From: a virus
Strand: one strand, 5' to 3'
IMG/VR virus record: IMGVR_UViG_3300044941_000346
DNA: 11,485 nucleotides
The notes beneath the pieces were generated by a model. The model saw nothing but the letters and a program-made list of their open reading frames with translations, did not search any database and was not told the DNA's origin. A program made the translations under genes and the position numbers. Below are positions 5,100-7,736 of this stretch, one piece after another (the first letter of the stretch is position 1; every line of letters begins with the position of its first letter).

Positions 5100-5923
5100 C
5101 TCTGCTCCATGCTGGTCTTCGCAGCTGAATAGAAGGCGTGCGCGTAGGGCACGTCCCACACCGCTTGATGCGCCAGCCGATGCCCGTAGAACCCATCCTC
5201 CCCATACGCTGTCCCGTGGTCCCCACATACGATACAGAACGTCTCATCCCGCAGCGATTCTAGTAGTAATGGCAGCTGGCTGTCTACATAGCGCAGCGCC
5301 GCTGCGTGCGTCTCGATCGTGTCCTCCGCCGCCCCATCTATATAAAAGCGATTCGGCTGGTGCAGCGCTGAGACATTGATAAACAGGAACGTGCGCTGCT
5401 CAGGTGCAAGCGCTCGTAGCCGCTCACCAGCTAGCTCAAACTGGTTTTTTGTAGAGTCTCGATCCGTCACGCCGAGCTTGGGCGCCCAGTGGCTCTCGTG
5501 AAATAAATTTGGTAGGACAGACCCCAGCGCCGTCTGCTTATTAAAGAAGCCCACGCCGCCGATGCAGATCGTGTGGTAGCCGCGCGCCGCCAGCCCCGTC
5601 ACAATGTCCGCCTCCTGCATCACACACGTCGTCTGTCCAGTCGTCTCCGATCCGCCAAAACTCGCCGCGAACAGCCTCACATGCCGCCCCGGTCTCGCCG
5701 GCGTCGGCAGAAACCCCGCGAAGAACGCTTGGTGTGCCGCATACGTAAAGCTCCCCGGCGTGTGCCGCCGCTCCCAGCCTCCCGGCCCGATCAGCCGCGC
5801 CAAGTGCGGCGTCTCGCCCGACCGCATCAGCCTGTCCGCCACATCAAAGCGCAGCGTATCCAGCGTCATAAACAGGATGTCGTGCGCCCCCACCACCGCG
5901 TTCATGTCCACATCATCGCTCAT
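5096..5923 (-). CDS. Alkaline-phosphatase-superfamily (sulfatase/phosphodiesterase-like) metallohydrolase; resembles what I recall as the STM4013/SEN3800 family hydrolase
   Basis: The N-terminal metal/nucleophile block is ILFMTLDTLRFD, with Asp-Thr in the position of the metal ligand and nucleophile. The C-terminal block is CGDHGTAYGEDGFYGH (the DHG...H metal ligands typical of the superfamily). The start is uncertain: ATG 5923 (11-nt overlap with the upstream gene, chosen), GTG 5929 (track), or ATG 5905 (7 nt after the upstream stop). Confidence 0.75.
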   Translation of the reverse strand: MSDDVDMNAVVGAHDILFMTLDTLRFDVADRLMRSGETPHLARLIGPGGWERRHTPGSFTYAAHQAFFAGFLPTPARPGRHVRLFAASFGGSETTGQTTCVMQEADIVTGLAARGYHTICIGGVGFFNKQTALGSVLPNLFHESHWAPKLGVTDRDSTKNQFELAGERLRALAPEQRTFLFINVSALHQPNRFYIDGAAEDTIETHAAALRYVDSQLPLLLESLRDETFCIVCGDHGTAYGEDGFYGHRLAHQAVWDVPYAHAFYSAAKTSMEQR

Positions 5924-7736
5924 CTTCACGCATCAACCACGCCTCAAGCTCTGTCACCTCGCCAAGCTCCACCTCGGGCGCTGGCTGCGCCACATGCCAC
6001 GTCCTGCCGCGCACTACCCACGCCGTCCTCAGCCCCACACACCGCGCCCCCAGCAGATCGTGCACCGGCGTATCACCGACCATCACCGCCGCGCGCGGAT
6101 CTTCCGCGCAGCCCGTCGCCGACAGCGCGGCCTCGAAGATCGCCGCGTCTGGTTTTGTAGCGCCGATCTCGTCTGAGATAAAGATCGCATCAGGATCAAA
6201 ATGTCGCAGGAGGTCAGCCCGCGCCAGCTTGTCGCGCTGGCTCGCGCTGCCACCGTTGCTCAACAGCGCCAACTTGTAACGTTTGCTCAATCGCTCAAGC
6301 ATCGCTTGAATCGCAGGCTCTGGCACAAGCTCCGCCGCGATGCGGCGCGGTAGCTCGGCCCACACGGCCCGCCACTCGCCCGCCTCCCTGCCGAGCAGCC
6401 CACACAGCGCCTCACACAACACTCGCCGATCCCCATGCCCATGCGCGTCCAGCGCAAACACCCGCGCCAGCGCCTCGTCATCACAGCCCGTCCAGCGCCG
6501 CACCGCCGCGCAGAACGCCGCGTCGCGGTCGATCAACGTGTTGTCGAGATCAAACAGCACCGCCCGTATCTTTGGCCACGCCTCCAGCCTGCCCCAGCCC
6601 GCAAAGCCCCGCACCTCCGCCGTATAGCTGTCCTCCCCACGATCATACACATTGGGCAGCAGATCCCCAAACGCATTGACCTCGATGATACGCGGCGCAT
6701 CCAGCGCATCCGCCGGGAACAACACGTCCGCCCCCAGATAATACGCGCCCGGAAACGCCTGCGCTGCCTGCCTACACAATACCTCAAGCGCGCTCCACCC
6801 CACATCTCCCACCAGCGCCCGCACCTGATCCAGCTCCCCCCGCGCGTTCCCCAGATGAAGGTTTGTCATGGGATGCTCTGAGGCCCGCACCACCACCTGA
6901 CGCGCCTCACCGCCGATCACCACCACCCGCAGATCAAAGTTTTTGTCCTGACCATCATGTCGGATCATCGCCTTTGATGACCACTTCTCCACCACCGCAC
7001 CCTCCGCCAATAAATAATTTAGCAGTAGCGCGATCTGTCGAATGTCGTGATAACGTCGCGGTCGAAGTGAATTGTAAATGGAGAACCTGCCGTCGCTGTC
7101 CTCCACCAGATGGGCCGTGGTGGTCAACATCGCGCGCGGGCCGCTGACGCGCAGAGCCGCAACGCCCGACGCAGACGAGCTGCCGCGCAGCTTCACAAAC
7201 ACCCGATCCCAGCCCGCCTCGTCCATCCGCGCCCGCAGCGCCTCCCACGATCCCACGCCCTCCAGCGATGGCATCCTCGGCACACCATGCGCGTCCAATC
7301 TGCGGTGCGTCGCCAGCTTGTCAAACATCACCGCGATCTCGTCCGGGCGGCTCATGATGCGCCCCGGCGCACCTTCAAGTATCACTTGAAGGTCGCGCAA
7401 GACCGCCTGCCAGCCCGCGCGCAGCTGCCCCGGCGCCAAAAGCCTGCCGTGCTCAAGCGGCGCACAGAGCGCCTCCTGCGCGGTAAGCGTCGGCTCGTCC
7501 AGCTCCTCCGCACCGCGCGCCAGCAGCCTGCGCGTCACGCGCGCATCCTCGCCCGGCGACTCCAGCCGCAGGATCGTGTCGTCGTCCAGCAGATCTGGCA
7601 GCACCACGCGCCCCTCCAACACGTCGAGCCACGCCACAAAGCGCGCCGCGCTGTGGCCGCTGCGCATCAGCGCGTCCTGCACGTACGCTGTGCGGCGATG
7701 CCCCGCGTTGCCCACCACCACCCACCGCCTCGTCAT
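5913..7736 (-). CDS. Fusion protein: N-terminal RimK/GshB-like ATP-grasp ligase (about nt 6573-7736) plus C-terminal HAD-IA-type phosphatase (about nt 5916-6572); the N-terminal part is possibly the STM4014-family equivalent
   Basis: ATP-grasp motifs: VFVKLRGSSSASGVAAL (K..GS..G.GV), FDLRVVVIGGE, HPMTNLHLGNARGE, RIIEVNAFGDL. HAD motifs: I AVLFDLDNTLID (DxDxT), II LALLSNG, III GATKPD, IV VMVGDTPVHDLLGA. The ATG at 7736-7734 (MTRRWVVVGNAG...) forms an ATGA overlap with the upstream TGA (7735-7733). The track start is GTG at 7745. Confidence 0.85.
   Translation of the reverse strand: MTRRWVVVGNAGHRRTAYVQDALMRSGHSAARFVAWLDVLEGRVVLPDLLDDDTILRLESPGEDARVTRRLLARGAEELDEPTLTAQEALCAPLEHGRLLAPGQLRAGWQAVLRDLQVILEGAPGRIMSRPDEIAVMFDKLATHRRLDAHGVPRMPSLEGVGSWEALRARMDEAGWDRVFVKLRGSSSASGVAALRVSGPRAMLTTTAHLVEDSDGRFSIYNSLRPRRYHDIRQIALLLNYLLAEGAVVEKWSSKAMIRHDGQDKNFDLRVVVIGGEARQVVVRASEHPMTNLHLGNARGELDQVRALVGDVGWSALEVLCRQAAQAFPGAYYLGADVLFPADALDAPRIIEVNAFGDLLPNVYDRGEDSYTAEVRGFAGWGRLEAWPKIRAVLFDLDNTLIDRDAAFCAAVRRWTGCDDEALARVFALDAHGHGDRRVLCEALCGLLGREAGEWRAVWAELPRRIAAELVPEPAIQAMLERLSKRYKLALLSNGGSASQRDKLARADLLRHFDPDAIFISDEIGATKPDAAIFEAALSATGCAEDPRAAVMVGDTPVHDLLGARCVGLRTAWVVRGRTWHVAQPAPEVELGEVTELEAWLMREDER

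Follow-up and report, generated by a model that had tools for sequence, protein, structure and literature searches.

The window analysed here, an 11,485-nucleotide stretch of DNA from IMG/VR virus record IMGVR_UViG_3300044941_000346, carries a gene cluster of the STM4011-4015 type in which the STM4014-family ATP-grasp ligase and a HAD-IA phosphatase are encoded as a single polypeptide. We found that this fusion is genuine: two cluster genes that are neighbors and translationally coupled have merged. Comparison of homologous loci shows the predicted HAD step to belong to the STM4011-4015 pathway. In the explanation that we favor as a whole, to which we assign a probability of about 0.6, the fusion is genuine, the ligase half would act on the C-terminal glutamate of the leucine-rich-repeat (LRR) protein STM4015, and the HAD half would dephosphorylate a pathway intermediate.

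The fusion gene lies in a minus-strand open reading frame (ORF) that runs without interruption over 5913..7745 and would encode 610 aa if started at an alternative GTG at 7745. The ATG at 7736 is the likelier start, because it overlaps the stop codon of the upstream LRR gene as ATGA and because the JGI gene call on the source contig (Ga0484951_003065) has the same start and a protein of 607 aa. Residue numbers given below follow the 610-aa numbering, and numbers in the AlphaFold2 (AF2) model, which begins at ATG 7736, are three lower. This model is compact, with two domains (pLDDT 95.9, pTM 0.93). The initial annotation, made from the sequence alone, had described an ATP-grasp and a HAD domain in one polypeptide with no stop or frameshift, which the continuous ORF and the NCBIfam and Pfam domain matches confirm. 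It had also placed the codons of the DxD nucleophile motif at about nt 6543-6551, and D399 and D401 were computed to lie at exactly nt 6551-6543.

The same gene is present at 100% identity on three further contigs (L085, L086, and L087), which come from related samples and are possibly non-independent. Six diverged fused orthologues were found in addition (identity to the window protein: P0002, 68%; P0003, 67%; P0004, 42%; P0059, 32%; P0243 and P0361, ~35%). Their contigs come from unrelated metagenomes, range in GC content from 0.35 to 0.69, and have the gene order STM4015 / fusion / STM4013 / STM4012 / STM4011 wherever they are long enough to show it. All of these proteins keep DxDxT, S/T-N-G, and K-P, and all keep G-D-x3-D save P0361, in which motif IV is G-N-D. 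About 55 residues of the HAD cap have been lost in P0243 and P0361. The ATP-grasp domain may substitute for the lost cap in these two proteins (loci L090 and L091).

For the search for separate HAD genes, the best 80 loci from GTDB species representatives were found with the ATP-grasp domain, which has at least 555 relatives there, and their ORFs were searched with the window proteins and a hidden Markov model (HMM) built from the fused HADs. A stand-alone orthologous HAD (~200-240 aa, HMM E 1e-31 to 1e-53) was found in 17 of the 71 loci with both an STM4014 and an STM4013 gene, and none of the 71 is fused. This gene is always directly upstream of STM4013 and, in colinear clusters, sits between STM4014 and STM4013, which is the position of the fusion. 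In eight of the nine unfused clusters examined, the HAD start either overlaps the STM4014 stop (as ATGA or by 1 to ~11 nt) or directly adjoins it, so that a small indel would fuse both genes, and such an indel may have sufficed for the fusion described here. The unfused clusters with a HAD include those of Bradymonadales (L005), Planctomycetota (L010, L016, and L028), Undibacterium (L052 and L063), and Bacteroidota (L031, L051, and L080). They resemble the window in gene order, in their orthologous proteins, and in the tail of STM4015, and their HADs have D399, D401, T403, D433, G436, R440, Q503, K506, K531, D558, and D563 in common with the fusion. In these clusters ligase and phosphatase are made as separate polypeptides from genes with overlapping stop and start; in the window a 13-residue linker joins them into one chain. 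The initial annotation had read the fusion as a Rosetta-stone hint that a HAD activity belongs to the pathway, and had proposed as a check that ATP-grasp and HAD be looked for as separate genes elsewhere in the same neighborhood; the 17 clusters with an orthologous HAD at the fusion position answer that question in the affirmative and bear out the hint. Its view that the Salmonella-type STM4014 protein has no HAD domain was also correct, the Salmonella protein being 341 aa long and the family model 349 positions.

Salmonella has instead a Cof-type HAD-IIB gene, of another subfamily than HAD-IA, that overlaps the 3' end of STM4011. A Deinococcus plasmid and two Catellatospora genomes likewise carry a gene of this type, no more than ~1.5 kb away from the cluster, and it was never seen alongside the IA type. 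The Cof-type HAD-IIB looks like a non-orthologous replacement of HAD-IA, so a phosphatase appears to have been recruited to the STM4011-4015 cluster more than once.

Fused forms are rare. They account for five of the best 120 homologues and for four of the best 150 representatives at 50% identity (~3%), taken from 556 with E <1e-30. No fusion was found in the 80 GTDB loci or in 174 plasmid records; the fused proteins are all metagenomic, and none is present in NCBI or UniRef. In bootstrapped neighbor-joining trees built for each domain (100 replicates), which are a rough method for counting fusion events, a clade of all fused forms was recovered in 0/100 bootstraps for both domains. The ATP-grasp tree joined the window protein with P0002 and P0003 (100/100) and P0243 with P0361 (100/100). 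P0004 and P0059 are each isolated from the other fused forms, P0059 falling among Bacteroidota clusters whose HAD is a gene of its own. Because the fused forms never make one clade, the fusion probably arose independently about four times, and such repetition would imply that both activities are part of a single pathway and that their linkage is tolerated or of benefit. The fusion had previously been presumed lineage-specific. Its confinement to a single lineage does not stand, given the roughly four unrelated lineages in the domain trees.

The HAD half scores above the cutoffs of the HAD-IA models (TIGR01549, 46.1 bits against 23.3; TIGR01509, 32 against 29.4; Pfam HAD_2, 64 against 24) and also matches Pfam Hydrolase and Hydrolase_like. 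Five helices lie between motifs I and II in the AF2 model (aa 404-484 in model numbering), forming a C1 cap. Motifs I-IV are all present and conserved, as had been claimed for a complete four-motif HAD-IA domain, and a degenerate HAD, which had been named as grounds for abandoning that claim, is rejected because all catalytic motifs are conserved. Residues N497, G498, K531, P532, G557, D558, and D563 are kept in 21-22 of the 22 cluster-associated HADs. These 22 proteins form a distinct group with a cap signature of their own (D433, G436, R440, Q503, and K506, including D-x-x-G-x-x-x-R). The second Asp of DxDxT marks the HAD half as a putative phosphatase or mutase, not a dehalogenase. Its closest relatives are N-acylneuraminate-9-phosphatase (human NANP/HDHD4; PDB 2w4m and 2gfh) and HAD-IA proteins of the YjjG/YfnB type, from which it differs in the conserved signature of its cap. 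None of the named HAD equivalogs, including PynA and phosphoglycolate phosphatase, reached its cutoff (best TIGR02253, CTE7/NANP-like, 98 against 170; YjjG, 73 against 160).

The ATP-grasp half belongs to the STM4014 family by its match to NF038074 (E 1.9e-99, 333 bits, cutoff 175; model positions 1-346 of 349 aligned to aa 8-379) and by its four cluster neighbors, which are encoded on the same strand by overlapping genes and score above their cutoffs, with the truncated STM4015 near its cutoff. The family invariants are K143, K185, the S190-G194 loop (SSASG), E253, D271, R273, N295, H297, D340, E355, and N357. The nucleotide- and Mg-type residues among them (K143, K185, the SSASG loop, E253, D340, E355, and N357) were matched to the catalytic residues of RimK and LysX by pattern, not by residue-level superposition. 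LysX, ArgX, and RimK each join an amino acid to the glutamate at the C-terminus of a protein, and LysX and ArgX work with the amino-group carrier LysW in archaeal and Thermus lysine and arginine biosynthesis. The STM4014 half has an ATP-grasp fold, for which the top matches are ArgX/LysX bound to LysW (PDB 3vpb and 5k2m) and RimK (PDB 4iwx); glutathione synthetase (20.8), DcsG (20.5), and PurK (20.3) rank lower. By sequence it is not a member of the RimK/LysX families (rimK_fam TIGR00768, 21 bits against a cutoff of 143; LysX_arch TIGR02144, 19 against 276), and a PDB profile search against RimK/LysX structures gave matches with E 0.5-1.

A protein substrate for such a ligase is suggested by STM4015. 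The window's copy of it ends in ...DDDDDYWYVEVGE-COOH, its last seven codons being at 10791-10811 on the minus strand. Among 128 STM4015 homologues, 122 end in Glu, and the other six have the look of truncated or frameshifted sequences; 106 of the 128 match R-Y-x4-E-COOH exactly. In the 122 Glu-ending tails, position -6 is R in 117 cases, position -5 is always Y or F, and position -2 is V in 98, and the motif is preceded by an acidic stretch (~31% Asp/Glu over residues -27 to -8). Canonical tails were found in all fused loci. The gene for the Glu-tailed STM4015 is immediately upstream of STM4014 in 67 of 82 loci, the pair is kept together when clusters split, and cyanobacteria have three to five STM4015 paralogues per single enzyme set. 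These patterns suggest that the tail serves for recognition or modification, and the acidic stretch and terminal Glu, as in the partner proteins of RimK/LysX-ArgX-type ligases, make STM4015 a candidate substrate. The tail was not described in the literature searched, although comments to the NCBIfam models could conceivably mention the motif. A HAD acting on a phosphorylated Ser or Thr at tail position -1 was considered and is unsupported, this residue being G, S, T, or A regardless of the HAD; the same holds for a phosphorylated Tyr at -5, where 11 of the 122 tails have Phe.

The likeness to known carriers has limits. LysW is a 54-aa zinc-ribbon protein ending in EDWGE, whereas the presumed carrier here is an LRR protein of ~300 aa with an R-Y-x4-E tail, and the enzymes downstream of LysX/ArgX are ArgB/C/D/E-like, whereas here they are radical SAM, alkaline-phosphatase-type, and HAD enzymes. 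STM4015 (309 aa, LRR, ending in R/W-Y-x4-E) is thus not a LysW-type carrier by sequence, and the resemblance is functional alone. We know of no fusion of RimK with a phosphatase. RimK also acts on another protein than the proposed STM4015, namely, ribosomal protein S6 (PDB 4iwx; PMC10375531).

By analogy with these enzymes, the ATP-grasp half would activate a carboxylate of the STM4015 C-terminal Glu with ATP and ligate an amine-bearing building block onto it. The HAD half, a predicted Asp-nucleophile phosphomonoesterase with a small-molecule-type C1 cap, would take the phosphate off a pathway intermediate, which may be either the building block or an adduct tethered to the flexible STM4015 tail. 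In the LysW system, relatives of small-molecule enzymes process carrier-bound substrates, which provides a precedent for a capped HAD that acts on a tethered group. STM4013, with its probable Thr nucleophile and alkaline-phosphatase-type fold, and the two radical SAM enzymes may then tailor the tail further. Taken to its full extent, this would be an unreported tail-templated pathway, with STM4015 as a new class of carrier or substrate whose R-Y-x4-Glu end is loaded by a LysX/RimK-like ligase and then worked on, via a phosphorylated intermediate, by the HAD phosphatase, the alkaline-phosphatase-type STM4013, and the two radical SAM enzymes. The product of the pathway would be either a new protein modification or, assembled on the tail, a small molecule or cofactor. 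We regard this extended proposal as tentative, at somewhat less than even odds.

Several observations weigh against the favored explanation. About three quarters of the clusters have no HAD within 10 kb, and there the step must accordingly be dispensable or be taken over by an enzyme whose gene lies elsewhere. Three of the split clusters carry a HAD (L013, L066, and L077); in each, its gene heads the STM4013-4012-4011 operon, away from STM4014, which weakens the idea of consecutive ligation and dephosphorylation. The initial annotation had suggested such coupling, or else proofreading, on a phosphorylated substrate; either is at present a conjecture. The tail sequence is the same in clusters with and without a HAD, and no kinase is encoded in the cluster. 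Within the window, the canonical STM4015 is not next to the fusion gene; between them lie the two non-canonical LRR genes and a further, frameshifted LRR gene. The literature searched also contained no biochemical data on any member of the cluster.

The serious rival to the favored explanation is that the fusion is mechanistically neutral: overlapping neighbors were merged by an indel, the HAD has STM4013 and the radical SAM enzymes as its actual partners, and the two halves neither channel an intermediate nor carry out consecutive reactions. Adjacency alone could suffice for such a merger, since stop and start already overlap in unfused clusters, and both the place of the HAD at the head of the STM4013-4012-4011 operon in split clusters and the rarity of the fusion (0/80 GTDB loci, ~3% of representatives) fit a neutral event. 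It is harder to reconcile with a fusion that has arisen and been retained in about four unrelated lineages, with the very short linker and compact two-domain model (pTM 0.93), or with the loss of most of the HAD cap in the lineage of P0243 and P0361, which suggests adaptation to the fused state. We consider a neutral fusion unlikely, but by a smaller measure than the alternatives that follow.

The order of the two steps could also be the reverse, with the HAD making the amine substrate, for example, from a phospho-amino acid or an amino-sugar phosphate, and the ATP-grasp half ligating it afterward. HAD-IA enzymes with a C1 cap typically act on free small phosphomonoesters, as would be in keeping with NANP and YjjG-type nucleotidases as closest relatives, and a HAD that is dispensable in most clusters is what one would expect of a substrate that generic phosphatases of the cell can provide. 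The data do not order the two steps. By position the HAD gene follows that of the ligase, and where clusters are split it remains next to the genes of the later enzymes; we judge the reversed order to be rather improbable.

About as improbable is a free small-molecule product, joined from two small molecules by an ATP-grasp enzyme that resembles glutathione synthetase or DcsG, with STM4015 as a scaffold, sensor, or regulator. The fold comparison leaves room for this, glutathione synthetase, DcsG, PurK, and PurT being nearly as close as LysX/RimK. A scaffold is, however, hard to square with the fixed R-Y-x4-E register and the terminal Glu in 122/128 homologues across many phyla, or with the adjacency of STM4015 to STM4014 in 67/82 loci and the three to five paralogues per enzyme set.

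A much more remote alternative is that the halves oppose each other, the ATP-grasp half being a kinase that the HAD reverses. PPIP5K/Vip1, in which an ATP-grasp kinase domain is covalently joined to a histidine-acid-phosphatase-like domain, is the only well-known ATP-grasp/phosphatase fusion that we know of. Against this, a kinase ranks below more than ten ligases in the fold comparison, the STM4014 family keeps the RimK/LysX ligase-type motifs TNLHLGN and E-x-N, and in most clusters the ATP-grasp protein occurs without any HAD. Finally, an assembly or sequencing error that joined two genes, as might be suspected from a frameshifted LRR paralogue ~2 kb upstream on the same contig and from identical contigs that are perhaps not independent, is rejected with next to no residual probability, because the same in-frame junction recurs in six diverged orthologues from unrelated metagenomes of very different GC content.

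The genes of the window are all on the minus strand, and most neighbors overlap by 4-17 nt (Table 1). STM4013 is the most conserved protein of the cluster, with 62-73% identity among the 44 closest homologues aligned (P0386-P0505) against ~45% for STM4014. It has a stripped-down alkaline-phosphatase fold of ~265 aa, with D24, T62, H66, D237, H238, and H250 invariant and no C/S-x-P-x-R motif. Thr62 is its probable nucleophile, and STM4013 is likely a phosphoryl-transfer enzyme and not a sulfatase. The same grounds, namely, the invariant Thr62 and the missing C/S-x-P-x-R, speak against a formylglycine sulfatase that the SPASM-like radical SAM protein would mature, and this reading was rejected.

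The two non-canonical LRR proteins have an N-terminal domain in common, lack the R-Y-x4-E tail (they end in ...VDDERWEP and ...DPDDPWWMA), and are of uncertain membership in the system. A homologue of these proteins is present in the Bradymonadales locus (L005 3728-4945). The fragments at 9852-10825, taken together, resemble a third paralogue of the two non-canonical LRR genes, which is either a frameshifted pseudogene or the result of local sequencing errors. Vault-like proteins are unusual in bacteria; the gene for one, a homologue of the eukaryotic major vault protein, that follows STM4011 was rejected as part of the system, being present in none of the other loci fetched when checked, and is probably merely a neighbor. 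A 37-codon ORF after STM4011 (2709-2822) was considered as a precursor peptide, and nothing notable was seen in its sequence. In 27 fetched loci a DUF6745-like gene (~330-380 aa) follows STM4011 on the opposite strand (e.g., L084 11097-12098 and L082 14229-15359); it may be a further accessory component.

Table 1. Features of the window and of Cof-type HAD genes in homologous loci (positions in the window unless a locus is named).
Feature	Position	Strand	Details
STM4014-HAD fusion gene	5913..7736	-	607 aa from ATG 7736; stop codon 5913-5915; from ORF list and translation
ATGA overlap, upstream LRR gene stop / fusion gene start	7733..7736	-	Read from sequence; translational coupling
ATP-grasp ligase domain, STM4014 family	6609..7724	-	aa 8-379; NCBIfam NF038074
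Linker between the domains	6570..6608	-	13 residues, aa 380-392, FAGWGRLEAWPKI; alignment of fused and unfused homologues, AF2 secondary structure
HAD-IA phosphatase domain, C1 helical cap	5946..6569	-	aa 393-600; NCBIfam and Pfam
HAD motif I, D399-L-D401 in FDLDNTL (nucleophile, general acid/base)	6543..6551	-	D399, D401, and T403 in 22/22 cluster HADs
HAD motifs II-IV, S496 (LLSNG), K531 (KPD), D558 and D563 (GDTPVHD)	6057..6260	-	Alignment of fused proteins
STM4013 hydrolase, minimal alkaline-phosphatase-superfamily enzyme	5096..5923	-	Start overlaps 3' end of fusion gene
STM4012 HemN-like radical SAM protein	3702..5099	-	NF006067, 525 bits; 465 aa; 4-nt overlap on each side
STM4011 radical SAM protein	2830..3705	-	NF038073, 386 bits; Pfam Radical_SAM, weak SPASM-like C-terminus
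STM4015 LRR protein, 3' part	10788..11485	-	NF038076, 228 bits (partial); full 309 aa on source contig, sequence from L085
Two non-canonical LRR genes	8989-9855, 7733-9001	-	Pfam LRR; weak STM4015 match
Frameshifted LRR paralogue	9852-10825	-	Three fragments in different frames: 10640-10825, 10127-10573, 9852-10130
Major-vault-protein-like gene	131-2602	-	823 aa; Pfam MVP_shoulder 97 bits, Vault_3, C-terminal coiled coil
Cof-type HAD-IIB genes (Salmonella, Deinococcus, Catellatospora)	L089 9712-10446; L084 12495-13322; L043 and L055 ~15600-16500

The cluster is found in Salmonella, myxobacteria, cyanobacteria, actinomycetes, planctomycetes, and one Asgard archaeon, with matches in at least 555 GTDB species and thousands of matching protein clusters. 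The archaeal case is a complete 4015-4015-4014-4013-4012-4011 cluster on an Asgard-assigned contig of a Promethearchaeota metagenome-assembled genome (L075, JAFGGO010000093.1), and could be a horizontal transfer or a binning error. An anti-phage defense system was rejected as a reading of the cluster: PADLOC returned nothing relevant, with no defense-system match for the fusion, STM4013, or the LRR proteins and weak generic radical-SAM matches for the radical SAM pair.

NCBIfam already has names for the component families, and RefSeq annotates unfused clusters; the literature searched held nothing on the function of the STM4011-4015 cluster or on an STM4014-HAD fusion. The fusion, the separate HAD, and the Cof-type HAD of Salmonella add a sixth component to this cluster, and together they point to a phosphomonoester intermediate in the pathway. 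The fusion is of value mainly because it points the way to a model of the whole cluster that can be tested. If true, the link to a HAD, the STM4015 tail with its terminal Glu, and an STM4014 fold like that of LysX and RimK could lead to a function for all of the cluster.

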